This document shows positions 2,920 through 33,015 of a DNA stretch of 42,011 bases, piece after piece. The DNA is from a virus (lineage: Duplodnaviria; Caudoviricetes). Below the pieces are notes generated by a model, which saw only the letters and a list, made by a program, of their open reading frames with translations, searched no databases and was not told where the DNA came from. Within the stretch, counting starts at the first letter, position 1, and every line of letters starts with the position of its first letter. The DNA lies in IMG/VR virus record IMGVR_UViG_3300033985_000086, positions 1 to 42,011 of that record. One strand, written 5' to 3'. Both the position numbers and the translations under genes were made by a program.

Positions 2920-3114
2920 ATGCTCCTCTCCATCCGCCACGCCGCACAGCGGCTCGACGTGCATCCGGACACGCTCCGGAGATGGGCCAGGGACGGCCTC
3001 ATCGCCGTCGTGCGCCTGCCGTCGGGCCGCCTGCGAGTGGCCGAGGAGGAGCTTGAACATATAGCCCGGCCCGACACCCGGGTCGATCAAATTATGAGGA
3101 GTATCGGACTATGA
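2920..3114 (+). CDS. excisionase/MerR-type HTH DNA-binding protein
   Basis: LSIRHAAQRLDVHPDTLRRWARDGLI..RLPSGRLR. Confidence 0.85.
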   Translation: MLLSIRHAAQRLDVHPDTLRRWARDGLIAVVRLPSGRLRVAEEELEHIARPDTRVDQIMRSIGL

Positions 3115-3230
3115 TCTGTCCAGAATGTGGATGCCGAGTCATCCATCAGGCAAGGTCAGCGAGACACGCACCTATCATTAGCCGAAACCCACCGTATCGC
3201 CGGCACTGCGCTGGCGAAGGGGAGGAGTGA
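3111..3230 (+). pseudogene. N-terminal half of split Zn-ribbon mini-gene
   Basis: MICPECGCRVIHQ then unrelated tail; GAGGAG RBS and ATGA overlap. Confidence 0.55.
3124..3148 (+). repeat. 25-bp direct repeat, copy 1
   Basis: AATGTGGATGCCGAGTCATCCATCA, identical to 4048-4072. Confidence 0.95.
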
Positions 3231-3233
3231 GCC

Positions 3234-4022
3234 ATGAATGCTCCCGTCGTCATCGGCAACGCGGTACTGTACCTCGGCGACTGCCTGGAGGTCATGGCAG
3301 GGCTGCCGGATGCCAGCGTCGACATGATCCTTTGCGACCTGCCCTACGGCACGACGGCCTGCAAGTGGGACACGGTGATCCCGTTCGATGCACTGTGGGC
3401 GCAGTACCGCAGGGTGGCAAAACGGAACGCGGCCATTGTGCTGACGGCATCGCAGCCGTTCACGACGGCGCTGATCTCCAGCAACATGCGCGAGTTTCGC
3501 TATTGCTGGGTGTGGGTCAAGTCCCGCGTAACCGGGTTTGCCAACGCGAAGTTGCAGCCGCTTCGATGCGTTGAGGACGTCGTGGTGTTCTACCGCAGCC
3601 GCCCAACGTACAACCCGCAGGGGCTTATGCGGATCGACGCCGTAAGGCGAAACGGGGCGTCTGTGGGTGGCGACTCCCTTCGTGGCGATACGGGGGCCAG
3701 CGCCAACAGGGGTTCCCTGCGAACGGCGGGCGCGGAGTATGTCCAAGAGTTCACCGGGTATCCGCGCCAAGTCCTGAGCATCGGTAGCGAGTCGGGAACG
3801 GCCCACCCGACCCAAAAGCCCGTAGCGCTGATGGAATACCTGATCCGCACATACACCAACGAGGGCGAGGTGGTGCTGGATAACTGTATGGGGTCCGGCA
3901 CAACTGGCGTGGCCTGCGCCAACACGGGCCGCCGGTTCATCGGCATCGAGCGAGAACCTAAGTATTTCGATATTGCCTGCCGCCGAATCAAGGACGCGTT
4001 GGGACAGGAGAAGAACCATTGA
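3234..4022 (+). CDS. orphan N6-adenine/N4-cytosine DNA methyltransferase (beta class)
   Basis: GDCLE, CDLPYG, HPTQKP, LDNCMGSGTTG motifs. Confidence 0.93.
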   Translation: MNAPVVIGNAVLYLGDCLEVMAGLPDASVDMILCDLPYGTTACKWDTVIPFDALWAQYRRVAKRNAAIVLTASQPFTTALISSNMREFRYCWVWVKSRVTGFANAKLQPLRCVEDVVVFYRSRPTYNPQGLMRIDAVRRNGASVGGDSLRGDTGASANRGSLRTAGAEYVQEFTGYPRQVLSIGSESGTAHPTQKPVALMEYLIRTYTNEGEVVLDNCMGSGTTGVACANTGRRFIGIEREPKYFDIACRRIKDALGQEKNH

Positions 4023-4031
4023 ACGAATTGA

Positions 4032-4157
4032 TCGAGATGCTGCGGCAAATGTGGATGCCGAGTCATCCATCAAGAAGGTTGCGCCCTCTGCCCCGTCTGC
4101 GGGTGGAGCCCGTGTAAAATGAGGAAAATATTCCATCGTCGGCAACGAGTCTGGTGA
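4032..4157 (+). pseudogene. start-less Zn-ribbon frame (other half of split mini-gene)
   Basis: CGKCGCRVIHQEGCALCPVCGWSPCK follows in-frame TGA 4029-4031 with no start codon. Confidence 0.55.
4048..4072 (+). repeat. 25-bp direct repeat, copy 2
   Basis: Identical to 3124-3148. Confidence 0.95.
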
Positions 4158-4246
4158 AACCCATCTGTCCCGATTGTGGACGGGAGCTGACCTTCCAGGA
4201 AGGCTGCTTTTTGTGTGCGGCATGTGGGTTTACCCGGTGTGGATGA
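4154..4246 (+). CDS. 30-aa Zn-ribbon peptide
   Basis: GTG start in GTGA overlap; KPICPDCGRELTFQEGCFLCAACGFTRCG*; too short for the ORF track. Confidence 0.65.
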   Translation: MKPICPDCGRELTFQEGCFLCAACGFTRCG

Positions 4247-4518
4247 GGTCGATCCCCGCGTGCGCGGGGGAGACACCCAGGCCAGTTGGTCGAGCGCGAT
4301 GAGCCGGGGTCGATCCCCGCGTGCGCGGGGAGACGGCCAGAGCGTGGCCGACGCCCTGAAGTGGGCGGGTCGATCCCCGCGTGCGCGGGGGGAGACATGG
4401 CCGCCGAGTGTCAATAGAGCCGCATTGCGGGTCGATCCCCGCGTGCGCGGGGGAGACGCTCCACCTTTGGAGGTCAGCTCGTCTATCTTGGGTCGATCCC
4501 CGCGTGCGCGGGGGAGAC
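4246..4518 (-). CRISPR. type I-E-like CRISPR mini-array, 5 repeats / 4 spacers, no cas genes, no leader
   Basis: Repeat (minus strand) GTCTCCCCCGCGCACGCGGGGATCGACCC at 4246-4274, 4307-4334, 4367-4396, 4429-4457, 4490-4518; unique 32-bp spacers 4275-4306, 4335-4366, 4397-4428, 4458-4489; CCCCGCG/CGCGGGG stem. Confidence 0.98.
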
Positions 4519-4524
4519 GCTGCT

Positions 4525-5025
4525 TCATGCTGGCCACTCCAAGACCGGCAGTTCCGGCTCGATGTCAGCGTAGCCGCTGGGGGCAGGCCGCGTCCCAGCT
4601 TCGACCTCGGCCAGGATTTGATACAGCTTCACCCACGTAGCGTCACGCGCCTCGACCGCATACTGGCCTTCAGCCTTGAACTTGGGCACCGTGCTGGCGG
4701 CGTATGTGGCTGCCGACAGAATGCCGTCATAGCCTCGCGTCCGTGCGAAGTCGTCGAGGCGTTTCTGTACCGCAGCCGTGTATTGGGCGACGATCTGCTC
4801 AGGGGTTAGCGGCTCTGGTTCCGGCTCTGGTTCCGGCTCCGGCAAATCTTCAAACACCCAAGATGCCCCTGTCCAGCGGGCGCGCTTTCCGGCTGGAGTC
4901 GTTGGCGGCTCGGCTTCTATGCAGCCGCCCGGAATCAAAAAAACACCAGGCTCAAGCGGAGATTCGTCTGCAATTGTTGTGCCGACAAAAAATCCATCGG
5001 CGTCAAGTTGACATACAATTTTCAT
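4525..5025 (-). CDS. tail fibre assembly/chaperone-like protein
   Basis: ADESPLEPGVFLIP N-terminus, PEPEP linker, LDDFARTRGYDGILSAATYA; directly after fibre gene. Confidence 0.8.
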   Translation of the reverse strand: MKIVCQLDADGFFVGTTIADESPLEPGVFLIPGGCIEAEPPTTPAGKRARWTGASWVFEDLPEPEPEPEPEPLTPEQIVAQYTAAVQKRLDDFARTRGYDGILSAATYAASTVPKFKAEGQYAVEARDATWVKLYQILAEVEAGTRPAPSGYADIEPELPVLEWPA

Positions 5026-5036
5026 ATTTTAACTCC

Positions 5037-6824
5037 TTAGAACTTGATGCAGGCCAATAGGGCGACGTTGCGAGGGCGGGTTTCAGTTGCCGTACGTGGC
5101 GTTCCGTTTATTCCATCACTCACAGGAGTAGTAATTCGGCCGGTTCTTATTTCGTTTCCCGGCCTATCATTCGCCCCCAGAAATTCACCAGTGCCCCCAG
5201 TACCCCCAATCCTTAAACTTCTGTTTGCGTGTCCATGGCCTTGCATGGCGTCTTCTTGCACAGTGCCGAGCGCCCGCCCGCTGTCCACGCCGCGTCCGTC
5301 ATCCCAGCCGCGCAGGAACTCACCGCGCAGATCCGGCAAGTTAAAGGTAGTCGATCCGTCACCAGCGCCAAACGCTGTTCCAATAACGGCAAATAGTGCC
5401 GCGTACGTCGTGCGGCTCACCGCAGCGCCGTTCGCCTTGAGCCAGCCGGACGGGGCTGTGTTTCTCGCGAAGTACGCCACCATGCCAGGCGGTGCATAGT
5501 CGGTGGGATTGAGGTTGCCGGAATGAAAAAACCTATGCCACGGACCCCATGATCCAGGGCCACCAACATCTGGCGGATTGCCTTGACGCCAATAAATCTC
5601 GCCGTTGCTGAAACCGGTTACGATTTGAAGAATGGTGTCATAGCCACCACGAGCAACAATCAATTGCCCAAACGCAACGCCTTCGGGTGCGTTTCCGGGA
5701 CTGTTACCGAGGCGGTAAAACCCCGGGAATACCACGGTGTTCAAATCGGTGCCGGCCGCAAGAGCGCCAAACCCTGCTGCACCAATCTCCGCCAGCGACC
5801 ACGACACGTCGGCCGACCCGTCGAAGCTCTTGCCGGTGTTGCCGATGGTGAGGGTGCGGGCGGTTTGGAGTCTGGTGGCGGTGGTGGCGTTTCCGACCAG
5901 CGAGCCGGCAGAAGCCTGCCATGACGACCCATTCCACACGCGCATTTCGTTGGCTGTGGTGTTCCAGTAGAGAGCGCCGACCTGTAGCGCGTTGCCATCG
6001 TTGTCCGTGACCGGGTCGCTGGGCTTGGCCCCGAGGTAGCGGTCGTCAAACGCATCGAAGCTGGCGGCAGCAGCCGAAGCCGAGGCAGCAGCAGCATTGG
6101 CGCTGTCCAGAGCCTGGGTGGCGCTGGCGGCAGCAGCATTGGCGCTGTCCAGAGCCTGGGTGGCGCTGGCGGCAGCAGCATTGGCCTTTGTGGTGGCGGT
6201 GGTGGCGCTGGCGGCAGCAGCATTGGCGCTGTCCAGAGCCTGGGTGGCGCTGGCGGCAGCAGCATCGGCCTTTGTGGTGGCGGTGGTGGCGCTGGCGGCA
6301 GCAGCATCGGCCTTTGTGGTGGCGGTGGTGGCCGCAATCTCGGCCCGCTCGGCGCTGTCCAGGGCGGATGCCGCAGAGGCCACGGAGGTGTCCCGGGCTG
6401 CGAAGATGGAATCCCGCAGTGCCTCCGGGGTCGTGCTGCTCGCCACGTCCACAACGATGGCCCGATCCAGTTTCTCCTTGAGCTGCTGCCGTTCAGCCGT
6501 CGCCCTGTCCAGGGCGGTCTCAACGACCTCTGGGTCCCAACGAGTTCCGCTAATCAGATCCACATCCTGAAGGAAGTCCATGGAGCGGGCGATGGTTATC
6601 TTGTGGCCGCTGGGCAGGGCAGGCCCGGAGGTCGGGTAGGTCACCGTTCCGCCCGTGCCGGCCAGGGAGACCGACCAGTTCGAGACCACCGTGGTCACGC
6701 CGGCCGCGTTGGTGATGCTGACTTCAAGGTCGGCCGCTTTCCAGACCTTGAAGGAAAACGGGAAGGAGGTCTGGACCCCGTCGCCGTTGAGTGTCACCTT
6801 GGACACCGCTGAACTCATAGTCAT
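5037..6824 (-). CDS. tail fibre protein (podovirus anchor, Ala-rich coil, collar domain)
   Basis: GDGVQTSFPFSF N-terminus; collar motifs GWLKANGAAVSRTTYAALF, TFNLPDLRGEFLRG; ETRPRNVALLACIKF end. Confidence 0.92.
   Translation of the reverse strand: MTMSSAVSKVTLNGDGVQTSFPFSFKVWKAADLEVSITNAAGVTTVVSNWSVSLAGTGGTVTYPTSGPALPSGHKITIARSMDFLQDVDLISGTRWDPEVVETALDRATAERQQLKEKLDRAIVVDVASSTTPEALRDSIFAARDTSVASAASALDSAERAEIAATTATTKADAAAASATTATTKADAAAASATQALDSANAAAASATTATTKANAAAASATQALDSANAAAASATQALDSANAAAASASAAAASFDAFDDRYLGAKPSDPVTDNDGNALQVGALYWNTTANEMRVWNGSSWQASAGSLVGNATTATRLQTARTLTIGNTGKSFDGSADVSWSLAEIGAAGFGALAAGTDLNTVVFPGFYRLGNSPGNAPEGVAFGQLIVARGGYDTILQIVTGFSNGEIYWRQGNPPDVGGPGSWGPWHRFFHSGNLNPTDYAPPGMVAYFARNTAPSGWLKANGAAVSRTTYAALFAVIGTAFGAGDGSTTFNLPDLRGEFLRGWDDGRGVDSGRALGTVQEDAMQGHGHANRSLRIGGTGGTGEFLGANDRPGNEIRTGRITTPVSDGINGTPRTATETRPRNVALLACIKF
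6088..6332 (-). repeat. tandem 42-bp (14-aa) repeats of two unit types in tail fibre
   Basis: TQALDSANAAAASA x3 and TTATTKA(D/N)AAAASA x3. Confidence 0.9.
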
Positions 6825-9800
6825 TTACTGCCTCCTTTTGCCGTACAGTAGTTCCTTGACCGAAAGCTCCGGGTCCTCCCCGGTCAAGTAGTCGATGAGG
6901 ACCTCGCCGCTGTCTATGAATTGGTCGGGGATAAGTCCAGTTGTGGTACCGACAAGCTGGGCTGTCGGTTTGACCGCGATGCTGGCGTCTTCCTGCTCGA
7001 TGGCCCGGGCCACGGATGAGATCCACTGGCCGACAGACTCGAAGGGCTTCAGCGCCGGGCTGAACCTGTACTGGAAGCCCTTGGCTATCCCGGACAGCTC
7101 GCGGGCGATGAGCACGGACTGGGCCGGGTAGGTCAAGAGGTTCACCAGGAGCTTCTCGGCTAGGGTCTCGTCGTCATCATCGTCTGCCACATCCCCGCGG
7201 ACCAAGGCCTCGAGCAGGACCGGCATGACCCACTGCAGGACCAGGAACGAGGACGCCCCGAGGGCCGCCGCACCGTACTGCCCGGAAGCCAGCTGCTTCT
7301 TCGTGATGCCGGCCCGGCGTGCTGCCAGATTGTAGAGCACGTTTCCGAAGGTGTAGAACATGGTCAGGAACCGCTGGATGGACCCGCCGCGCTGGATCTT
7401 CGAAAGGGCCCGGGTGTAGCCGGCGCCCATAGCCTGCTCGACCACGAAGTCGGCCTGGTTGATGGCGTCCTTCTCGGTCATGCCATCGGTCAGGGCCTGC
7501 AGGTAGGCGCCCTGCCATGCGACCACGTCGGCCACATAGAACTGCACGGCCACGGTGGCCTTGAAGCCTGCCTTCTTATAGGTGGCCAGCCAGGACTCGG
7601 ACGTGCTGAACTCCTTGGTCGCGTCCCTGATGTCGCGGTCTGCGTTCAGCAGGCGCTCGTTCATCTGCGGGGACTTCTCGCGGATCTCCTTGATGAGCGG
7701 GTGGCTGATGATCTCGCCATCCGAGAACATGTTCAGGGACAGGAGGCCCTTGCCATAGAGCTGCCAGACCGCCTGTCCGACATGCTTGGCCCGCACGAAC
7801 TCGAAGACCTGGAAGAAGCCCGCGGCCTGTATCAGGGCCGTTCCGACCTTGTATGCCATTGTGTAGAAGGTCATGGCCGGCCGGAAGTGCAGGAGCATCT
7901 TCTCGACCGCCGTGAGCTGGATCTGCTCGCGGCCCTCCTTGGACACGGAGACCAGCCAGGGCCAGAGCTGCTTGGCCTTCTCACGCCCAACCACGTCGGT
8001 GATCAGGGCCATGATCTGCTTGTTCTTGAGCAGCTTGGCCACATTGATCACGGCCTCCCGGTGCGTGATGTCGCGCAGCACCTGGGTGACATGGTCGGAG
8101 ATGACCGACAGCTCCTGGGACAGCCGCTCCCCGGTCCCGGCGGATGCGCGGGCCTCGAGGTGGCCATGGGCCGTCATGGCCGTGCCTGCCGGCGTTCCGC
8201 CGAAGAGCGCGTCCAGGGCCTCTTTGGCGTCCCGGGCTTCACCCTTCTGGTCGCGCAGGAGCTTGTCGTAGACCACCGGGTAGTAGCCGCCAGCGTAGGT
8301 CTTGCCTTTGAAGGTGAACGGGACCGGATCGACGCGCTTGGGCTCGCGGCCGGTCAGGCGCCGCTCGACAGCGAAGGCCTCCTCGCGGAACGTGTCGATG
8401 TAGTCCCAGACCGCCTGCACGAAATCCATCTCCTCGGTCGTCAGCGGGTCGAGGAGCTGCTGGAGCTGGGCCTCGTTGATGCCAAGGCCCGCCATGAGCC
8501 GCTCCCGGTTCCCCTGGTTGCCGATGTTCAAGGCCACCGCGACCAGCTGCGCCCGGGGACGGGCCTTGCCCAGGACCACCACCTTCTTGCGGAGCTGGCG
8601 CCGGATGGGCTCGAACAGTGCCTTGATCTTCGGGGCCTCCGTGGCCCAGCGTGCGGACAGGTCCGAATCGGCGTCCATGATCGGGCGGTAGATGAGCTGG
8701 TAGAACAGCCCGCCCGCTTCCCAGTTGTCCAGGGCTTGGATGATCGTGCTCGTCTTGGTGTGCTCGGCGAAGAAGTTCCGAGCGGCCAGGGTCACGGCGT
8801 TCGGGTCATAGGTCAGCGGGTCGGGAGCTTTCCCGCCCCGACCGGCCACATGAGCCTGGAGGCGCTCGATGGCGTCTTCCATGGTGATCGTGGACCCGTC
8901 GATCCAGGTCACGGTGTGCAGGCCTCGGTCCACTCTCCGAAGGATGCGGACGCCCTCTTCCAGGGCGCGGAACTGACCGACCGTGATGTCCTTGTAGCTG
9001 ACCGCCGCGGCGTTGTTCAGGAACGGGTCGAGCGGGGCGCTGATGCCCAGCTTGCGCATCTCATCCACCCAGCCCTCGATGGTCGGAATCTTGCCTCTTT
9101 TCGCAACCAGATCCTGATTCCACATTTCAAACGCCCTGACCGGGTCGCGCTCGCCCTTGTAGGGCAGGATGCCGTACTGGATGCCCAGGCCCTGCAGGAG
9201 CGTCTTGACCTCGGGGCTGATACCCTTGGTCTTCTGGATGCCCCGCTTGATCCTGGCCGCTGTCTTGGCCACGCCTTCCTTGAGCTTCACGCTCTCGATG
9301 AACATGGCATGGTTCAGCACCTCCTGCCGCTTGTACTCGGCGGCCTTCTTGGCGTCCCCGCGCTCGTAGGCCGACCGGGCCAGCTTGGCGGCACGGCGCT
9401 CGAGGCGTGCGAACCGGCCGGTCTGGGTGGCGAAGCCGACCTTCTCGGAGGCGAGCAGCTGCTTGGCCACATCCCGGACCATGGCGGCTTCCAGCCGCTT
9501 GACCTTCTGGGCGGCCTGCCGGGAGAGGATCTCGAACTCGGCCACCAGGACGGCGAGCTGGTCGTCGTTGTGGTAGGCCTCGTCTGCGGCCAGATCGGTC
9601 TCGGCCAGGCCCCGGGCGATGCGCTGCCGCTCCGCTTCCATCCTGGCCTCGACGCCGGCCGTGATTGCCGCCTTCTCGCCGGGGAATGCGAGCATGTCCT
9701 CGACCATGGCGACAGCGGAGTCGTAGCCGTGCTCGGCGGCCAGGATGTCCGGGTCAACCGTGCCGTCCTTCTTGACCAAGGAGGAGTAGCGGCCAACTGC

Positions 9801-12800
9801 CTTGAGCTTCTTGCGCAGGTCCTCGCCCACGGAGGCGTCGAGCGCCTTCATGTTGATGCCGGCGGCAGCGGCCTTGATGACGGCCATGACGGGACGCGCC
9901 TTGACCTCCTCGGCCACCTCGGCGCGGATCTTCCCCTTGCCGCCGTTGGCTTTGACCCATGCGTCGGTGAGCTGGCGCAGGCGCTTGTCTTCCATGGACT
10001 CCCTGGCCCGCATCCTGCGCTCCTCGTACTTCTCGCGCTCCTTGGCCATGACCTTCGGGTCAACGGCGGCGAAGAAGGGCTTCTGGCTGGAGTAGAAGGA
10101 CCTGGCCTCCTCGATGTCCTTCTCGGTCGCGAAGATCCGGTCAAAGATGGGTTTCAAATCCTCGTTGAACTGCGTGCCGCTCTGCAGGAAGATCTGCTCG
10201 ACCTGCTTGTAGATGGAGCGCAGCCACTGGGCGTACTGCGCGAAGATCTTCCGCAGACCAAGGCTCGGGGCCGCGCCTTCGAGGAAGTAGGCCTCGAGGT
10301 TCCGGGCCCACTCTTCATGGGCTTCGCGGGGGATGGGGCCATCATCGATCTTAAGGGCCGTCTTGGCCTGGGCCCACAGGGCCGCGATGGGTGCGGGGGC
10401 GTTCGGGGCCAGGGCCAGTTCGCGCAGCATCTCCAGATAGAGGTGGCCGGTCTCGTGCAGGAAAGACGACTGGTTGGCCGTGCGGAACAGCTCGATCAGC
10501 GGCCGGCCCGACTTGGTCTTGAAGGTGAAGCTGGCCTGGGGTTCGGATTGGTCCTGGTAGAACGTGTTCAGAATCTCTATAGCGTCGTCGTCGAAGATGA
10601 CGTAGTTGTACGACCCTTCGCCAGCGCCACGGCTTGTTCCGTCAAGGTACTTGATGCCCTTGATGCCGAGGCTGTTGAGGTACTCGGAGGCCGCTTTGTC
10701 GGAGCCGTGCTGCTCTGTAAGGTTAGCGTAAAATTCCTCTCCTTTTGTATTCGGATCGACCACGTTTCTGCGAGTTACTTCCAGAATCTTGCGGATATCT
10801 TCGCTACTTACCCCCCGCTCCGCATACCGGTGTGCTATGCTTGGCAGGTGCCTCTCCACCTCGGACAACAGCGCCTCCCGCACCTTCTCCGGCTGTTCGG
10901 ACAGGGGCTTGTCCCAGTGGAGCATGACGTCGTCCTCGGGGATGTCGACTTCGTAGAGTTGGCCCGACTTGCTTAAGTCATTGAACAGTTTTTTAGCCTC
11001 TCGAAGAATAGACAGCGCTTCATCTTTTGAATGGCCAAGGGCATCAAGCCCAGCTAGGATTCTATCGTGTGCAACACCTGCGTCGATCTGAGACGCAACC
11101 TGATTTACACGGTTAGGGGTTCCGTCTGCATTGAACTGGTTTTCTCTAAGATACTTAGACATGCCAAGCGTCTTCCGATACCACTCCGCGACTTCTTTCT
11201 TCCCCGCGAAGTACAAACCCCAGCCGTAAGCCTGCGCACCCTCGCCGGTGCCGATGGCGTCCAGCGTGAACTTGTCGAAGCGGTACGGGGAACCGTGGAA
11301 GGCGGTCTGATATAGAATACGAGGATCGTTGGCGTCGAAGGTGCCGCGGTTGTTGACGGATTTGATCTGCTCGGGAAACCACGCGACGAAGTGCCGTTCC
11401 CCGCTGGGGAAGACCTTGGATACACCATCGTACCCGGTGACTTTGTTGACGGCTTCACGGAACGCTGTAGCGTTGTCGCGGAAAAAGTCGTTCTCGAGTG
11501 ACCCTAGCTGGTCTACATAGTTCGTAGCCACCCGGGCTACGTGAGCCTTGGTGAACTTCTTTCCCCCGTTGTCCACCCAGTCTACGAGAGGGCTTTTTTC
11601 AGCGTCAAAGATGTTGGGGGCGAGAAGCATTATAGCTTCGGCCTGCTTAGCTGTTAGGCGTACCCCGGAAAGGCTGCCCTGTTCTGCACCAAGTACGATC
11701 GGCTTCTGTATAGAGAGATATGAGGGGGTAAGATTTCCTTTTTCCCCAGCGTAGCCCTTAGCGGTATCCTCGTCGGAGGTAAAGTAGAAGCCACTCCCGA
11801 GCTGGTCATTTCCCTTGCCGGTGCGATCCGGGTCGAAAGCTTCGATATCCGCGCCCGTCCCGTGGTACACCACCAGCGGCTTTCCCTGCTCGTCCACAAC
11901 CTTGGAGTCGCCAAACCACTTCTTGAAATACGGCGACTCCGTGCCCATCTCGGCCCACAAGCGCTGCGCTTCCGCGACCTCGGGGGCAGTGGTTGCTCCG
12001 GCGGTTTCGGCGGGCTGCTGCATCAATATGCGCGGATCGTTGGCGTCGACGGTGCCGCGGTTGTTGACGGATAGGGACTGATAGAACCTGTCGTTTATGA
12101 CCGTATACCCGGATTCATCGGGATAGGTCATCTCGCGGACGTCAAACACCTCAGAAATGAAAGCCCTGCCATCTTTCTTCTTGGAGTACCCGACGACCGA
12201 GTCGTACCCCGCTTCACGCACAGCGTGCGCCACGATGTTTTCCTGGATGGCGTAGGCAAGGGTATTACCCTGGCGACTGTTGGTGAAAATCTCGTAGGCA
12301 TCCACCTCTGTGGCGCCATACTTATCCAGAAGGGCGCGGATGTTGGCCACCTTGGCCTGCTCCGTGAGGCCCCAACCGCTCACCACCTGCAGGACTTCCT
12401 CGCGCATTTTGCTGTACGCTTTCTTGCCCATGATTGAGTCGTAAGCGGCTTCTGGGGCTTTTCCGCCCGTAGCGCCCTTCACGAACAGCGGCGCTTTCAA
12501 CAGCGTGCGGCCCTGCACTTTGACAGTACCTCCGTAGCCGTACTTCCCACCACGGTAATACTTCTCTTGTGCCGAGCCTGTGGGCAGATAGAACACGCCG
12601 GTCCTGATCGCAGTGCCGCCTGTCTGCTCTTCTTTCTGGTATCGCGTGAGATCCAGCTCCAAGCCATCAGCTACCAGTTCCGCGCCCGGAGTGTTGGCTA
12701 CCGCGTCCGCGAAGAGTGGGTCTGTGGGTATCTTGGACTCGTAGTTCAACGTGCGGGCGACCTCTGGTGATACTTGGTACATTACCCGCGCATCCGCCGG

Positions 12801-15800
12801 GTCGAAGGTGCCACGGTTGTTGACGGATTTGATCTGGGTTGGGTCGAACGCTACTACCCAAGGCTTATCTTTTTTTGCGGAGTACTGCGGATTAAGTATG
12901 ACGACGCCATCGTGGCCTGCGGATTCTATAGCTTTCCGCGTGTTGTTTTCAAAACGCCCCTCTGAAATGATAAAGCCCTCCGCGTTACGAACGTCCGGCG
13001 TCATTCCAGAGTGCTCGCGCATAAAGGCGCGGAAATCCTCTTGGGTCTTAAAAACCATGGGGTTTTTAAGCCCAACATAGTACTTTCCGACCTTAGGCCC
13101 GAAACGCTTGGCATCCCTTTCCTTGGACGCAAAAAATGATCCGATATTATCCCCGAGCGGATTACGCGCCGACAAGTCCATAGACCTATCGGAAGTATCG
13201 AAGGCGTCGAACTCAGCGTCCGTACCGTGGTATACCTCGAACACCTGTCGCCCGTCTGCCCACTTCTTGAAATACGGCGACTCCGTGCCCATCTCGGCCC
13301 ACAGTCTGGCGGCCTCTTCCGCCTCGGCGGTAGTGGTTGCTCCGGCGGTTTCGACGGATTGCATCAATATGCGCGGATCGTTGGCGTCGAAGGTGCCACG
13401 GTTGAAGACGGACTTGATCTGCTCCGGTTGGAAAGCCAAGTACGCTGTGCTGCCAGATTCCTTGATCACAAGGCCGTCGTACCCGTGATCTTCGAGCCGC
13501 CATTTAAGCGCATCGTGCTTGACATGGTTGTACACGGGAACAGAAGACGGTTTGAACTCAATCCCCGAAAGATCGATGCCTAGCTTGTCCCGCAGGTAGT
13601 CCCTAAGGCGCAGGCCGTCGACTCCTCCGTCCCCAAAATGCGTCAAGTCCAGTGGCTTTTTCATCGATAAGTAGCTCGGATACACGCCACCCGTGTTTCC
13701 GGCAAATCGGTTGGCATAGTCTTGGTCGGGGGTGAAGTACACGTAGCCCCCCTGGCCGCGCATGAACTGCGTGAAGCCTGGGCGGCCCGTCCCGTGGTAC
13801 ACCACCAGCGGCTTGCCTTCGGCGTCCACCACCTTGCTGTCTCCGAACCACTTCTTGAAGTACGGCGACTCCGTGCCCATCTCGGCCCACAGTCTGGCGG
13901 CCTCTTCGATCTCTGCCCGATTCTCGACGCCGGCATAGGCCGCGTCTTGCTGCAGGGTCTGTTCGTCAACAGCAGGCTGCCCCGCCCTGATCTGGGGCAT
14001 GTAGGCCTCGAAGAGCTGGGTCGGCGTGTACTTGCCCTCGGACATTTTGGCCATGGAAACCAGTGCCGCCGTGAACTGCGCGGCGTCCAGGCGGGCCGCA
14101 TCCGGAACCCGGCCGGCGGCCTGCCTCGCGGCATAGACCTGCTCGAAGATCGCCTTGGTCTCGGCGTCTTCCTGGTCTTTCAGCTCCTCGGTCTCAGCCG
14201 CAAGCTGCAAGACGCGCTTGGCCTCCTGGGCCCACTCCTGATTGAATTTGGCCAGCTCGTTTCTGGTGTAGCCATCAGCGGAGAGCTTGCGGTCGTTCAC
14301 GAACCGGGCGGCCAGATCCGGGTTAGCGGCGATGGCCGCACCGTACTGCTCGATCGGGATGGCTACGGTGCCCCCTGTGTTGAGGGCGAGATCGAAAGCC
14401 TCGAAGGAGACACCGAACTGGTTCAGAATCTCGGACACCTCGGCCAGATTGTCGGACATGATCGCGCTGGCGGGGATATGGATGTCGGAGATCTTGCCGC
14501 CCTCCTTGAGGACGGTCAGGGCCTCCTGGTACAGGACCGGGTCGAGCTGGGCCAGATTGGACTGGGCCACGTTCTCGGTCAGCATGTCCAGGACTTCCTG
14601 CTCCTTGGCGGCGAACTGGGCCTTCTGATACTCCATGCGCTCCGTAGCAGTGCCTGCCAGACCGCCCGTGATGAGTGAAGGCAGGAAGACGTCGAAGCCT
14701 TTCTGCGTGGCCTCCACGATGTCGGCGGCGATGGTGGGCACGGAGTCACCCCGGGCGATGCCTGCGACCAAGGCCTGGATGGGCTCCTCGGCCCACTCTG
14801 TCGCGCCCTCCACGGCGCCCTTCACGAAGAAGCCCTTGACCAGCCGCTTGGCCCAAGAGGTGGCCACACCCTGGCCTAGGACCTTGTCGGCGCCGATAGC
14901 GTTCAGAGCGCCCGACAAGATGCCGAAGACCTGACTGGCCGTGTTCGCCTTCCAGTCCTCCATGCCCTCGTCCAGCAGTTCCTGGTACAGTCCGCCGGCT
15001 TCCATGCCGCCGCCGACCACACCGGCAGCTGCAGGCCCGCTAGCCATGTAGGCCGCGATGGTCGCCCCGATGGAAGGCAGTATGTCCGTAGTAACATAGG
15101 CGACCCATTCCGGGTCGAGCATGATCTCGGGGTTGTCCCAGGCCCCCTTGCCGCGCAGGTCCTCGCTGATCTGCAGTGGCTCCGCGTTCAGGTAGTTCTC
15201 CCTGATCCATTTCGAAGCGCCCAGCGCAGCGTCCCGGAGCTCGCCAAAGTAGCCGCCCCGGGGCAGGCCCGTGAGCTGCTCGACGCCCTGCGCGGCGGAA
15301 TCGATGGCGCCGGGGAGGATGGAAAACAGGTTGAGGCCCATCTCGGCGAGAGAGCCGGGGGCCTTGATCAGACCCTTTCCGATAGCCCCTATGGGGTCCG
15401 CGATCAGCTCCTTGGCGAGCTTGTTGTCTCCATTTACGGGCATCTGGCCCGACATGGCGAAGCTGTCGACAGGTCCCGTAGCGATGAGGCGCTCCAGCTC
15501 GGCCAGATTCTCGATGTCGGTCTGGGCCACGGCGAAGCGGTCGGGGTCGGATAGGAAGCTGGTGGTCTTGGGCGCCTTGGACGCCACGTCGGCCAGGAGG
15601 CCATCGTTCAGCATCTCCCTGCGCTCGATCTCGTCCATGCGCTCTTCCACGATGCGGGGCGGCAGGCCGGCCTTCCTGGACAGGTTGATGACCTTGGCCG
15701 TGCGCTGCGGGTCCATGCCGTGGGTCAGCTCACGGGCGTTGATCAGTGCGGAGGGGTCCGCTGGCTTCACGCCCTGGTCCGGGTCGAGGAAGGAAAGGTC

Positions 15801-15872
15801 GGGCGAGACCGCGCCCATGGGGGTCTCGTCCGTCGAGTTCATGTTCGGGTCGAGGAAGGAAAGATCAGCCAT
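6825..15872 (-). CDS. giant internal virion (ejection) protein, polyvalent type, with tandem ART-like modules and HExxH motif
   Basis: 3015 aa; last ejection-protein position before fibre; repeated YHGT..G(x)YF..YL..P..GYDG..QIKSV.NRGTFD modules; FLHETGHL. Confidence 0.85.
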   Translation of the reverse strand: MADLSFLDPNMNSTDETPMGAVSPDLSFLDPDQGVKPADPSALINARELTHGMDPQRTAKVINLSRKAGLPPRIVEERMDEIERREMLNDGLLADVASKAPKTTSFLSDPDRFAVAQTDIENLAELERLIATGPVDSFAMSGQMPVNGDNKLAKELIADPIGAIGKGLIKAPGSLAEMGLNLFSILPGAIDSAAQGVEQLTGLPRGGYFGELRDAALGASKWIRENYLNAEPLQISEDLRGKGAWDNPEIMLDPEWVAYVTTDILPSIGATIAAYMASGPAAAGVVGGGMEAGGLYQELLDEGMEDWKANTASQVFGILSGALNAIGADKVLGQGVATSWAKRLVKGFFVKGAVEGATEWAEEPIQALVAGIARGDSVPTIAADIVEATQKGFDVFLPSLITGGLAGTATERMEYQKAQFAAKEQEVLDMLTENVAQSNLAQLDPVLYQEALTVLKEGGKISDIHIPASAIMSDNLAEVSEILNQFGVSFEAFDLALNTGGTVAIPIEQYGAAIAANPDLAARFVNDRKLSADGYTRNELAKFNQEWAQEAKRVLQLAAETEELKDQEDAETKAIFEQVYAARQAAGRVPDAARLDAAQFTAALVSMAKMSEGKYTPTQLFEAYMPQIRAGQPAVDEQTLQQDAAYAGVENRAEIEEAARLWAEMGTESPYFKKWFGDSKVVDAEGKPLVVYHGTGRPGFTQFMRGQGGYVYFTPDQDYANRFAGNTGGVYPSYLSMKKPLDLTHFGDGGVDGLRLRDYLRDKLGIDLSGIEFKPSSVPVYNHVKHDALKWRLEDHGYDGLVIKESGSTAYLAFQPEQIKSVFNRGTFDANDPRILMQSVETAGATTTAEAEEAARLWAEMGTESPYFKKWADGRQVFEVYHGTDAEFDAFDTSDRSMDLSARNPLGDNIGSFFASKERDAKRFGPKVGKYYVGLKNPMVFKTQEDFRAFMREHSGMTPDVRNAEGFIISEGRFENNTRKAIESAGHDGVVILNPQYSAKKDKPWVVAFDPTQIKSVNNRGTFDPADARVMYQVSPEVARTLNYESKIPTDPLFADAVANTPGAELVADGLELDLTRYQKEEQTGGTAIRTGVFYLPTGSAQEKYYRGGKYGYGGTVKVQGRTLLKAPLFVKGATGGKAPEAAYDSIMGKKAYSKMREEVLQVVSGWGLTEQAKVANIRALLDKYGATEVDAYEIFTNSRQGNTLAYAIQENIVAHAVREAGYDSVVGYSKKKDGRAFISEVFDVREMTYPDESGYTVINDRFYQSLSVNNRGTVDANDPRILMQQPAETAGATTAPEVAEAQRLWAEMGTESPYFKKWFGDSKVVDEQGKPLVVYHGTGADIEAFDPDRTGKGNDQLGSGFYFTSDEDTAKGYAGEKGNLTPSYLSIQKPIVLGAEQGSLSGVRLTAKQAEAIMLLAPNIFDAEKSPLVDWVDNGGKKFTKAHVARVATNYVDQLGSLENDFFRDNATAFREAVNKVTGYDGVSKVFPSGERHFVAWFPEQIKSVNNRGTFDANDPRILYQTAFHGSPYRFDKFTLDAIGTGEGAQAYGWGLYFAGKKEVAEWYRKTLGMSKYLRENQFNADGTPNRVNQVASQIDAGVAHDRILAGLDALGHSKDEALSILREAKKLFNDLSKSGQLYEVDIPEDDVMLHWDKPLSEQPEKVREALLSEVERHLPSIAHRYAERGVSSEDIRKILEVTRRNVVDPNTKGEEFYANLTEQHGSDKAASEYLNSLGIKGIKYLDGTSRGAGEGSYNYVIFDDDAIEILNTFYQDQSEPQASFTFKTKSGRPLIELFRTANQSSFLHETGHLYLEMLRELALAPNAPAPIAALWAQAKTALKIDDGPIPREAHEEWARNLEAYFLEGAAPSLGLRKIFAQYAQWLRSIYKQVEQIFLQSGTQFNEDLKPIFDRIFATEKDIEEARSFYSSQKPFFAAVDPKVMAKEREKYEERRMRARESMEDKRLRQLTDAWVKANGGKGKIRAEVAEEVKARPVMAVIKAAAAGINMKALDASVGEDLRKKLKAVGRYSSLVKKDGTVDPDILAAEHGYDSAVAMVEDMLAFPGEKAAITAGVEARMEAERQRIARGLAETDLAADEAYHNDDQLAVLVAEFEILSRQAAQKVKRLEAAMVRDVAKQLLASEKVGFATQTGRFARLERRAAKLARSAYERGDAKKAAEYKRQEVLNHAMFIESVKLKEGVAKTAARIKRGIQKTKGISPEVKTLLQGLGIQYGILPYKGERDPVRAFEMWNQDLVAKRGKIPTIEGWVDEMRKLGISAPLDPFLNNAAAVSYKDITVGQFRALEEGVRILRRVDRGLHTVTWIDGSTITMEDAIERLQAHVAGRGGKAPDPLTYDPNAVTLAARNFFAEHTKTSTIIQALDNWEAGGLFYQLIYRPIMDADSDLSARWATEAPKIKALFEPIRRQLRKKVVVLGKARPRAQLVAVALNIGNQGNRERLMAGLGINEAQLQQLLDPLTTEEMDFVQAVWDYIDTFREEAFAVERRLTGREPKRVDPVPFTFKGKTYAGGYYPVVYDKLLRDQKGEARDAKEALDALFGGTPAGTAMTAHGHLEARASAGTGERLSQELSVISDHVTQVLRDITHREAVINVAKLLKNKQIMALITDVVGREKAKQLWPWLVSVSKEGREQIQLTAVEKMLLHFRPAMTFYTMAYKVGTALIQAAGFFQVFEFVRAKHVGQAVWQLYGKGLLSLNMFSDGEIISHPLIKEIREKSPQMNERLLNADRDIRDATKEFSTSESWLATYKKAGFKATVAVQFYVADVVAWQGAYLQALTDGMTEKDAINQADFVVEQAMGAGYTRALSKIQRGGSIQRFLTMFYTFGNVLYNLAARRAGITKKQLASGQYGAAALGASSFLVLQWVMPVLLEALVRGDVADDDDDETLAEKLLVNLLTYPAQSVLIARELSGIAKGFQYRFSPALKPFESVGQWISSVARAIEQEDASIAVKPTAQLVGTTTGLIPDQFIDSGEVLIDYLTGEDPELSVKELLYGKRRQ
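11311..13908 (-). repeat. dispersed intragenic module-boundary repeats
   Basis: LWAEMGTESPYFKKW-coding blocks at about 11916-11959, 13260-13319, 13849-13908; NRGT(F/V)D-coding blocks at about 11311-11372, 12019-12071, 12775-12837, 13359-13423. Confidence 0.9.
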
Positions 15873-15881
15873 AGGGCCCCC

Positions 15882-17879
15882 TTATCGTTTGTAGGACAGG
15901 ACTTTCTTGACGTAGGCGATGGTCTCGGCTGGCACCTTGCTCGGGTCGGCCCCGGACTCGTACCACTGCGCCGTCGCGTTCGGGCCCCAGTTGTAGGCCA
16001 TGAGGGCCAGCTTCTCGGCGTTGGCCGGGTCCACCTTGGTGAAGCGGTCGATCAGCTGCTTGAGATACCGGACGCCGCCGGCCACGTTCTGCTCCGGGTC
16101 CCTGGGATCGACACCCAGGTCCCGGGCCGTGCCGGGCATGAGCTGCATGTAGCCATAGGCGCCCTTGGGACTCTTGGCATCGATCTTCAAGTTGCTCTCC
16201 GTTCGGATCACACCCTCGACCAAGTATTCAGGAACGCCCTGAATCTGGGCCTGCTTGCGGGCGTAACCGACCGGGTCGGCTTCGACGTCGATGTAGAAAT
16301 CCTTGCCTTCAAGCTGGGCCTCGAATCGGGTCTTCTTTTCCCAGTCCGAGCTCCACCAGCTGCCTGAGCCCTTAACCTTGCCCTTGTAGAGGATCTCGTC
16401 GTCCACGATTTTCTGCTTCTCGGCCGTGGTGAGCTTGCGGCCCTTGTTGGCCATCTCCATCTGGACCAGGGTGGTGTACCGGCGGTTCAGGGCTGCGAGC
16501 TTCTCGCGATCCGAGTCCCTCATCTGGGAAGGCGTCGTCCGGATCTTGAGCAGGCCCGCGGCCTCGTTGATGATGTCCGAGTCAGAGCGGATCTCATCGA
16601 TCACGGGGGACGACGCACCCTTACCCAGGGAGATGTAGGCATTGTCGAACTTCTCACGGGTAGCCTGGGAGAGCTTGGCGAGCACGGCCGGGCTGTTCCA
16701 CTCCTCACGGAACTTGGTCGGGTCGTTCGCCAGCATCTGGGTCCACTTCCACTTCTCAACTGGGTCGTCCTCGACGGACTTGCCCGACAGGATGGTATCC
16801 CGATAGGCCGAGAATTCCTTGCGCAGGCCGGCGGGCGCGTCCTCGATGATGCGCTGCACGGCGTCCAGGTCCTTGACCTCCAGGGCCCGGACCAGGGCGT
16901 CCTCGGAAACCTTGGCCTTCTGGGCCTCCGCTTCCTTCTGCTCCGACCGCTGCCATTGGATCTCGGACTTGGTGCGCTGCTCTGCCGCGTCTTTGATGAG
17001 CGGATCGATGTCCTGCTCACGCAGCCAGCCGAGGGGGTCCTCATGGCCCATGGCCTCCTGGAACAGGCCGTAGCTCTTGGCCCGGTCGGAGGCGGCCTTA
17101 AAGCTCTTCTCGACGGCCGCGGCATCGTCGCCGGTCAGGCGTTCGTCTTTGAGCATACCCTGGACCGTGGTGAAATTCCCGTTCTCGATGTGGCGCATGG
17201 CCACGTCCTTGAGCGTCGAGGACTTGAGCGCGGAGACCATAGACTCGGTCGCCTCCGGGTCGAGGCCGGAAAGACGTGCAGCCGCCCGGGCCGACTCTTC
17301 CATCCGGCCAAGAGCCGCATCGACCAGGCCGGGGTCCGTGAAATTGAGGAGAGCGTAGCTGTTCTCCTTCTTCGCCACAGCTTTGTATCCCTCGACCAGG
17401 GCGGCCTTGCGCTGCCTGCCTTCGTGCCTGGCAACGGAGAGCAGCGACTCGCTGGCCAGCGAGTCGGCCTTTAGGCCAAATGCCCGCTGCTGGTCTGGGT
17501 TCTCGAGCGTCCCGGCGATCTCCCGGCGTGCGCGGTCAAAGGCCTCCTTGGCTTCCTTGGTCGCCCCTATGGCCCCCTGGCCGGAACGGTTGAACAGGCC
17601 CGTCTCGGGCGAGCCGTCGCCGTAGAGCAGCATGCCCACGGCATCATGGTAGCGGCGATAGGCGTCGAGGACGGCGGTCTCGTCCTCCTCCTTCTTCATG
17701 CGGTTGGCGGTGGCCAGCATGACAGTGCCGACGTTGGCCATGCCGCCGCCAAGACTTTTCAGCCCCGCGGCGTCCCCGCCGCCGAACATGGCCAGATTCG
17801 TGTCGAAGCTCTGCTTGGGTGCTCCGAGGTCAACGCTCTGCCGGTCGAACTGCCGGTCGTAGACTGGGATCTTAGGCAT
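15882..17879 (-). CDS. internal virion protein with C-terminal lytic transglycosylase (SLT) domain
   Basis: IRTES..AKSPKGAYGYMQLMPGTA..AYNWGP..ETIAYV. Confidence 0.9.
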   Translation of the reverse strand: MPKIPVYDRQFDRQSVDLGAPKQSFDTNLAMFGGGDAAGLKSLGGGMANVGTVMLATANRMKKEEDETAVLDAYRRYHDAVGMLLYGDGSPETGLFNRSGQGAIGATKEAKEAFDRARREIAGTLENPDQQRAFGLKADSLASESLLSVARHEGRQRKAALVEGYKAVAKKENSYALLNFTDPGLVDAALGRMEESARAAARLSGLDPEATESMVSALKSSTLKDVAMRHIENGNFTTVQGMLKDERLTGDDAAAVEKSFKAASDRAKSYGLFQEAMGHEDPLGWLREQDIDPLIKDAAEQRTKSEIQWQRSEQKEAEAQKAKVSEDALVRALEVKDLDAVQRIIEDAPAGLRKEFSAYRDTILSGKSVEDDPVEKWKWTQMLANDPTKFREEWNSPAVLAKLSQATREKFDNAYISLGKGASSPVIDEIRSDSDIINEAAGLLKIRTTPSQMRDSDREKLAALNRRYTTLVQMEMANKGRKLTTAEKQKIVDDEILYKGKVKGSGSWWSSDWEKKTRFEAQLEGKDFYIDVEADPVGYARKQAQIQGVPEYLVEGVIRTESNLKIDAKSPKGAYGYMQLMPGTARDLGVDPRDPEQNVAGGVRYLKQLIDRFTKVDPANAEKLALMAYNWGPNATAQWYESGADPSKVPAETIAYVKKVLSYKR

Positions 17880-32404: not shown

Positions 32405-33015
32405 TTTAGATGCTTTAAGCACCAATTTCATAAAACAGGATTTCAGGCGGACCGAGACACCGGACAAACCCTATAGGGATTTGTCCGTTTGTCCGCCGGG
32501 GTCTTCGGCGCGGCGGACAAAGCGGATTGTCCGCGTAGTATTTTTATATACTTACAAACTTTAGATGCTTTATTGTTATTCATACCCCCGCTACCATTCT
32601 TCTTTAGTTTCGTAGTATTTTTATATACTTACAAACTTTAGATGCTTTATTGTTATTCATAAAAGGCCCTGCTCAAGAGCGCCATGGCCCCGATCCTTCC
32701 TGCCGCCATCTGCCAGCGCCGCAAGCATCCCCTCGTCGCGCCCGCGCCCTTTCGGGCGACTCCGACGCCCAAAGGTCGGTCGCCCCTGGGGCAGGGGGTC
32801 GCAAGACCCGGAGGCCCCTTTAGGGGTGCGACCTCTGCGACCTTGCGACCCTAGGAACCACGCGGGTTCCCAGCCTTCGTCGCAACGAAGTCCGCTGCGA
32901 CCTCTGCGACCCTCCCCATGAAAACCCGGAAAGCTAGGCGCACCAAGGGGTCGCAAAGTCGCAGACAGGTCATTGCGACCTCTGCGACCTACCCTACAGG
33001 TGGTCATCTGCGACC
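32405..33015. other. putative replication origin
   Basis: Intergenic downstream of primase-helicase; AT-rich duplication, many TGCGACC/GGTCGCA heptamers and CGGACA/TGTCCG hexamers. Confidence 0.65.
32534..32661 (+). repeat. perfect 51-bp AT-rich direct repeat x2
   Basis: CGTAGTATTTTTATATACTTACAAACTTTAGATGCTTTATTGTTATTCATA at 32534-32584 and 32611-32661. Confidence 0.97.

Follow-up and report, generated by a model that had tools for sequence, protein, structure and literature searches.

Viral mini-arrays and related systems

CRISPR mini-arrays carried by viruses are known to target related viruses, with self-targeting avoided by deletion or mutation (PMC6858448). Those of SPV1 and SPV2 (Medvedeva et al. 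2019, PMC6858448) have repeats of the host type and no cas genes, carry a spacer against co-occurring viral DNA while the virus's own copy of the target is deleted, and lie close to the target site, a proximity whose origin that report calls unclear. The phage array described here appears to resemble them in each of these respects. The SPV1 and SPV2 arrays differ in having only one or two spacers, a host-like leader with a promoter, and spacers that turn over in place, whereas ours has four spacers and no leader, is of the bacterial type I-E, and apparently sits on the stub of the very gene that it targets.

The phage mini-arrays of Faure et al. 2019 (as cited in PMC7099407, PMC11656645 and PMC8616872) share the host-like repeats and the spacers against related viruses; they also have no host-like leader and are supposed to have been gained by recombination, but they usually hold a single spacer. 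These citing accounts mention neither a PAM-registered junction nor a targeted gene that is missing from the place where the array sits. Mini-arrays have in addition been characterized as having one or two spacers (PMC11656645), where the present array has four. Recombination between a spacer and its protospacer (Varble et al. 2019, via PMC8616872 and PMC10434264) provides another parallel, as a crossover inside a spacer would give a junction like that at 4518/4519 of our sequence; the route described there, however, leads to transducing particles that carry CRISPR loci from one host to another, and a stable array in a complete phage is not mentioned in the citing accounts. Finally, the RNAs termed Racr and Cracr are alike in being cas-less viral RNAs that use host Cas6 or Cascade (PMC11656645; bioRxiv 10.1101/2024.10.29.618823). 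By comparison, the spacers of our array are full-length, its repeats are canonical and it has a target in phage DNA, with no match to a cas promoter found, and its five repeats and four spacers contrast with the single repeat of a Racr.

On this comparison the array would work much as known viral mini-arrays do, host-type repeats, related-virus targets and recombinational gain all being known already. What appears to be new is its position, on the probable stub of a lost gene whose family is matched by its own spacer S1. A PAM-registered junction of a viral array was described nowhere in the literature surveyed, although this consisted mostly of abstracts and the claim of absence is a weak one. 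As a separate observation, Saccharomonospora phage PIS 136 (L256, JX006077.1) contains at about 15,680-15,900 an unannotated, I-E-like array of four repeats and three spacers; a leader-like sequence flanks it, and a PAM in register is absent.

The phage genome and its relatives

The whole 42,011-nucleotide stretch that was analysed (IMG/VR record IMGVR_UViG_3300033985_000086) is referred to below as the window. It represents most of a BPP-1/phiV10-like podophage genome, with genes for portal, capsid, terminase, nozzle, ejected proteins and tail fibre on the minus strand and replication and methylase genes on the plus strand. A virus genome of this kind (portal, capsid, terminase and tail genes), with an array and no cas genes, is the setting expected of a viral mini-array. 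The window has no exact terminal overlap, and a scan of 46 ORFs revealed no integrase. The complete relative G001 has a capsid protein 90% identical to that of the window and about 4 kb of additional sequence, whose ORFs we read, from the sequence alone, as SSB-like and DNA polymerase-like. Twelve loci make up the close relatives; among the five records searched for the junction between early and late genes, G001 is the sole one to span it, with a different tail module and no array.

Almost no capsid relatives are named; the two that are, at 58-60% identity, are Deltaproteobacteria/Desulfovibrionaceae records, and a sample of 401 Rhodocyclaceae genomes, with two candidates scored per genome, yielded distant prophages only (about 39% capsid identity). 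The capsid was found in none of five genomes that bear the repeat. Of the 995 host spacers, not one finds a full-length match in the window or in its close relatives; four short matches checked in Rhodocyclaceae do not lie in arrays.

Several other features of the genome deserve mention in their own right. A type II restriction-modification pair occupies 1081-2659 on the plus strand (MTase_II, E 2.8e-145; REase_II, E 8e-58; PADLOC), is missing from the same region of G001, and may be a second weapon against rivals. An exact 25-bp direct repeat (3123-3147 and 4047-4071) flanks the methylase gene at 3234-4022 and splits a Zn-ribbon mini-ORF, like an insertion with duplication; the same sequencing runs contain a commoner variant of the methylase. 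A minus-strand gene at 6825-15872 encodes a likely ejected protein of 3015 aa with three ART-PolyVal domains and LPD22, and has several promoter-like sites inside. There are 42-bp tandem repeats within the tail fibre gene (6075-6345), and at 32534-32661 two exact copies of a 51-bp AT-rich direct repeat lie 77 bp apart in a low-GC stretch, possibly an origin or control site.

Architecture of the array

In the register used by host arrays with the same repeat, the array occupies 4247-4518 on the minus strand and comprises five type I-E repeats and four distinct spacers, with repeat periods of 61, 60, 62 and 61. The first-pass annotation had found these counts at this place; its span (4246..4524) and its 32-bp spacers give way to the host register, in which each spacer measures 33 nt. 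The features are as follows.

4525..5025, minus strand: tail fibre assembly-like gene, which closes the late block
4519..4528, minus strand: 5' stub of a phrog_3342-type gene; its ATG overlaps the tail-assembly stop and it reads M-K-Q-R-L into the repeat
4519..4553, minus strand: candidate junction protospacer S*, 33 nt (4551-4519), C first, AA before it, ending at repeat 1
4491..4518, minus strand: repeat 1 (counted in the direction of transcription), the canonical 28 nt with a Cas6e-type hairpin
4458..4490, minus strand: spacer S4, 33 nt, no target found
4430..4457, minus strand: repeat 2, canonical
4397..4429, minus strand: spacer S3, 33 nt, no target found
4368..4396, minus strand: repeat 3, 29 nt, one C added in the C-run, hairpin retained
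4335..4367, minus strand: spacer S2, 33 nt, near match in run X5
4308..4334, minus strand: repeat 4, 27 nt, one C lost from the C-run, hairpin retained
4275..4307, minus strand: spacer S1, 33 nt, matching a phrog_3342-type gene in X3, X4 and G465
4247..4274, minus strand: repeat 5, the last, canonical, adjoining the stop of the Zn-ribbon ORF
4154..4246, plus strand: convergent Zn-ribbon ORF, 30 codons, TGA at 4244-4246, weak PHROG match (E 3.7e-4)

All four spacers begin with C, and the repeat hairpins have z scores of -2.4 to -3.4. Elsewhere in the window there are no further repeat-like copies at seven or fewer edits, and an Rfam search matched nothing. The orientation assigned earlier holds, since host loci carry the leader 5' of the same repeat orientation; the reported overlap of the last repeat with the stop codon of the convergent gene does not, as in the host register the repeat abuts the TGA without overlapping it. 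Insertions or deletions in the C-run affect two of the five repeats, compared with none of 1514 host repeats (p about 1e-5), and all of the repeat changes leave the hairpin and the 5' handle intact.

A host-type repeat without leader or cas genes

The exact 28-nt repeat occurs at 22 GTDB loci and 43 metagenome loci, and has no match in IMG/VR. Its GTDB carriers include Thermomonas, Silanimonas, Lysobacteraceae, Thiobacillaceae, Rhodocyclaceae and Burkholderiales, among others. In all four GTDB loci scanned (L007, L008, L012 and L014) the adjacent operon is of type I-E, with matches to Cas3, Cse1, Cse2, Cas7, Cas5 and Cas1e, and in L007 and L014 to Cas6e as well; at L016 a Cas3 HD domain alone was seen among three ORFs examined. 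Judged by a repeat identical to that of cas-linked host arrays, the phage array is of type I-E. Host arrays with the exact repeat are built of 28-nt repeats and 33-nt spacers whose first base varies: among 995 unique spacers it is C in 557, T in 384, G in 45 and A in 9, and C or T thus opens 941 of them. None of the four phage spacers is among these 995, shifted registers included. Comparison with host I-E loci, proposed earlier as a way to identify the host, yielded an identical repeat in several bacterial groups.

The absence of a leader, claimed from the first inspection, is borne out. An AT-rich motif drawn from host leaders, where it sits about 45 bases upstream, is found between -42 and -48 in 8 of 10 GTDB leaders but is absent from the whole minus strand of the window, and the flank upstream of the first repeat is coding DNA with 33% AT. 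Growth of the array in place was rejected because the leader is missing, which supports the earlier view that the array was captured as a block. There was agreement as well on the lack of cas genes in the 42 kb: none was found among 46 ORFs compared with PHROGs and Pfam, among 20 ORFs compared with PADLOC, or by tblastn with the Cas3, Cse1, Cse2, Cas7, Cas5, Cas6e and Cas1 proteins of host loci, a lone Cas5 match being rejected as out of frame and of low complexity. There is accordingly no complete CRISPR-Cas system in cis within the window, a statement that holds for these 42 kb only, because the window lacks about 4 kb that are present in the complete relative G001.

Physical support in public contigs

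Contigs from four public runs of one study (X1-X4, of which X1 may be the source of the window) match the array with no other letters and no gaps, one-base repeat variants included; the variant in repeat 3 has identical letters in X1, X3 and X4. These are contigs, not reads. The depth of the array is 613, 1580, 566 and 514 in X1, X2, X3 and X4, respectively, and that of its flanks 403-609 in X1, X3 and X4 and 1294-1513 in X2. Each of the four runs has single contigs that link the Zn-ribbon ORF with repeats and spacers, and others that pass from a repeat into the tail gene. At neither junction does a record show 31 letters on each side (maximum 30 at the left and 27 at the right), because the assembly graph branches at both. 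Array-less alleles exist: in five of five runs, from two studies, another contig runs along the Zn-ribbon ORF and departs exactly after 4246 into non-array sequence. Low-depth contigs with a like repeat but other spacers (depth 17.2 in X2 and 4.3 in X4) suggest, by their repeat, that a matching host system is present in the same samples.

Could the array then be a chimera of a host array and phage DNA created in assembly? The lack of any contig with 31 letters on both sides of a junction would fit such an artifact, and the four supporting runs come from one study, one of them perhaps the source itself. Yet the array has the depth of the phage (about 500-1600), whereas other arrays with a like repeat stand at 4-17, and contigs cross from the Zn-ribbon ORF into the array and from repeat into tail gene in four of four runs; a chimera is hardly credible. 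The array is real and belongs to phage DNA, at phage depth.

Spacer targets

The clearest target is that of S1. In X3, a 31-nt node (4274-4304) is shared between the array and sequence with non-array flanks on both sides, and these flanks read as the start of a small phage protein, phrog_3342. The target in X3 and X4 is identical to S1 at 32 of 33 positions, with an AA-C PAM and a mismatch at guide position 2, within the seed. By depth arithmetic the target DNA amounts to an extra 4416 across two flanking contigs in X3 (about 2,200 each), to about 70 in X4 and to none in X2; in X1 the contig is unbroken and there is no shared S1-target node. S1 also matches the Burkholderiales genome G465 (locus L252) at 27 of 33 positions with an AA-T PAM, in a gene that hits the phrog_3342 HMM at E 6.7e-47, and in confirmed register five IMG/VR homologues with 9-10 mismatches each. 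The AA-Y PAM was inferred from the first-base bias of the spacers, the I-E PAM list in PMC8482600, and the two matches. At the mismatch, the codon in the spacer gives Arg and those of the phrog_3342 homologues compared give Ile, Leu or Val, so S1 itself may have decayed; a mismatch within the I-E seed can block cleavage (PMC10011333).

For S2 there is one near match, in a contig of the wastewater run X5 (depth 3.9, 2 other letters in 34, non-repeat flank, no PAM visible). Near matches to L253 (7 mismatches) and L254 (6) were set aside as chance, since they fall in housekeeping-like genes and have no AA PAM. S3 and S4 found a target in nothing searched, so that the spacer search with PAM check advised at the outset produced an S1 target with AA-C PAM and a near match for S2 but nothing for the other two. 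There are no self-targets in the window, where the best match has at least 10 mismatches of 32. Exact pieces of S1 are found in neither IMG/VR nor the JGI metagenomes, and the array as a whole gave repeat matches and short chance matches only among the best 30 of 55 cultured phage records and the best 30 of 356 plasmid records. A 99-repeat host array likewise had no target in cultured phages. The earlier idea of inter-phage competition gains support to the extent that S1 matches a phage gene in abundant DNA of the same samples.

Junctions and the replaced gene

The gap of 6 bp between the array and the tail-assembly stop was correctly noted before, but these bases, together with an ATGA overlap, form the stub of another gene. 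The same ATGA overlap with a tail-assembly-like gene occurs in L252 and L044, and five of seven phrog_3342 homologues compared start M-K/R-Q-R-L-L-N. In 5 of the 32 loci tested, a member of the family comes directly behind a tail-assembly homologue (from 40 loci, 4 were too short and 4 had no match to the protein end; L024 was one of the profile seeds). In the ESM Atlas, phrog_3342 falls only into unnamed viral clusters. The rest of a gene of this family is absent from the six frames of the window. From the stub, the gene order and this absence, the array likely replaced a phrog_3342-type gene, the one targeted by its own S1.

The right junction has a further peculiarity. The 33 nt that end at repeat 1 (S*) begin with C, follow AA, and lie 10 bases upstream of the would-be start of the S1 target on the same strand. 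AAC or AAT makes up 1.7% of the strand and 2.7% in the tail genes, giving a chance of 2-3% for a PAM in this register in a test made after looking. The sign is not unique, because among 21 distinct 5' flanks of host loci there are 2 that also have AAY there. It could have arisen by spacer-protospacer recombination or by a Cas1-Cas2 half-site. In E. coli, integration at the leader-repeat junction begins with the non-PAM end of a prespacer, at a time when its PAM end has yet to be trimmed; primed spacers derive from the same strand (PMC10011333, PMC10284694). A different route is indicated by X5, where an array-less allele of depth 4.9 keeps matching six bases into the repeat (to 4513, with 2 other letters), so a 6-base microhomology could have made the right junction. 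We give the crossover and half-site routes, taken together, an even chance, and microhomology one slightly short of even; on a rough weighing the two are about equal.

The left junction falls exactly where the repeat ends, but a gene ends at the same point, and the sole array-less allele seen there has CA rather than AA in the PAM position, which leaves a second spacer crossover unsupported. The end of the Zn-ribbon ORF has no match in IMG/VR, and an 18-nt junction pattern recovered six loci, all unrelated to the window. In the X5 contig matching 4513-4560 (low depth), the array is lacking and the phrog_3342 frame breaks off soon after its start as well; the next bases partly resemble the first half of the repeat, pointing to an independent truncation or a decayed array.

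Under one reading, the locus would be a frozen record of how mini-arrays arise, in which the host CRISPR joined the attacked phage's own protospacer to an array and so deleted the targeted gene, either by spacer-protospacer crossover or through a Cas1-Cas2 half-site during priming. We regard this as unlikely.

A second reading makes the array an escape scar: the swap would have been selected for deleting a host-targeted protospacer, and perhaps more, leaving the array as decaying cargo. S1 targets exactly the gene that was lost, its seed mismatch seems to lie in the spacer itself, C-run slippage is found in 2 of 5 repeats as against 0 of 1514 in hosts, and promoter and leader are both missing. 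Against this, repeat recombination has not collapsed the array, which is at full phage depth in four samples; the repeat indels leave the hairpins intact; and S1, and probably S2, are still close to extant DNA. Such a scar, the strongest competitor of the reading preferred below, is possible but doubtful.

Transcription and possible function

The late gene block is unbroken from 26002 to 4525, with gaps of at most 45 bp, and the array is co-directional with these structural genes, as had been noted from the start. The further claim that it has no promoter of its own also stands, as no promoter-like site occurs in 3000-5300. Read-through transcription is proposed because the late genes run up to the array and no promoter-like site lies nearby; without one, crRNA would come late. 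The direction shared with the late operon would be forced by the capture route and is not a sign of selection. G001 has a strong two-way terminator-like hairpin at its early/late junction (z -4.7 and -4.0) and no array, and so a terminator may also have gone from the window, though the comparison is loose as the tail module of G001 differs. No minus-strand terminator-like site was seen in 3100-5300 of the window, a weak blank because the same simple scan also missed the G001 hairpin.

This arrangement invites the idea of an RNA decoy or 3' end, in which the repeats would soak up Cas6e or Cascade late in infection, or cutting by Cas6e would substitute for the terminator. Phage late transcripts are abundant, and the contrast between the hairpin of the array-less G001 and the terminator blank in the window is what such a substitution would predict, but the blank is the weak one just described. 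Moreover, late expression would be too late to save incoming DNA, and full repeat-spacer units should yield normal crRNAs, where Racrs are single repeat units (PMC11656645). We consider a decoy or 3' end improbable, and for Cascade titration, raised in the first-pass annotation, there is no specific support.

Silencing of a host cas promoter in the manner of a Cracr is very improbable. Multi-spacer I-E Cracr arrays do exist in phages (bioRxiv 10.1101/2024.10.29.618823), but the known spacers measure 21-24 nt with repeat-like units, whereas those here are full-length (33 nt) between canonical repeats. In 65 host loci (392 kb, from which the true host may be absent) there is no match to PAM plus 11 or 13 seed bases; a single 9-base match lies inside a cas7-sized ORF of L005.

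The reading that we prefer, at even chances, takes the array for a block captured from a host: it would be transcribed by read-through from the late genes, and host Cascade/Cas3 would turn it against relatives in which the gene persists. A four-spacer block would have been lifted from a host array and placed over the small gene after the last tail gene, possibly by recombination of a host spacer with its protospacer at the tail gene end, and the junction terminator would have been lost. RNA made by read-through of the late operon would be cut by host Cas6e at each hairpin into four 61-nt crRNAs, and these would load host Cascade/Cas3 and bring about degradation of co-infecting DNA that keeps the phrog_3342-type gene. 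Interference so late would lower a rival's share of the burst rather than exclude it at entry. By I-E processing, the piece upstream of the first repeat would have no 5' handle, and S* should thus escape self-targeting.

Implications

How phages acquire mini-arrays, and why targets often adjoin arrays, is a question raised with the SPV1 and SPV2 arrays (PMC6858448). If the capture reading is true, an array can be gained at the attacked site itself, where it replaces the target and gives the phage a weapon against relatives that have retained the gene, while running on late mRNA with neither promoter nor leader. Were the locus only a scar, it would still mark an escape route from type I-E immunity. 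And if the locus is a frozen record of an array's origin, the phage would gain a guide aimed at siblings that did not recombine. The array would in that case propagate in the manner of a homing element that is RNA-guided and needs no protein of its own, and viral arrays could be searched for the fingerprint of this route, a PAM exactly one spacer length ahead of the first repeat.
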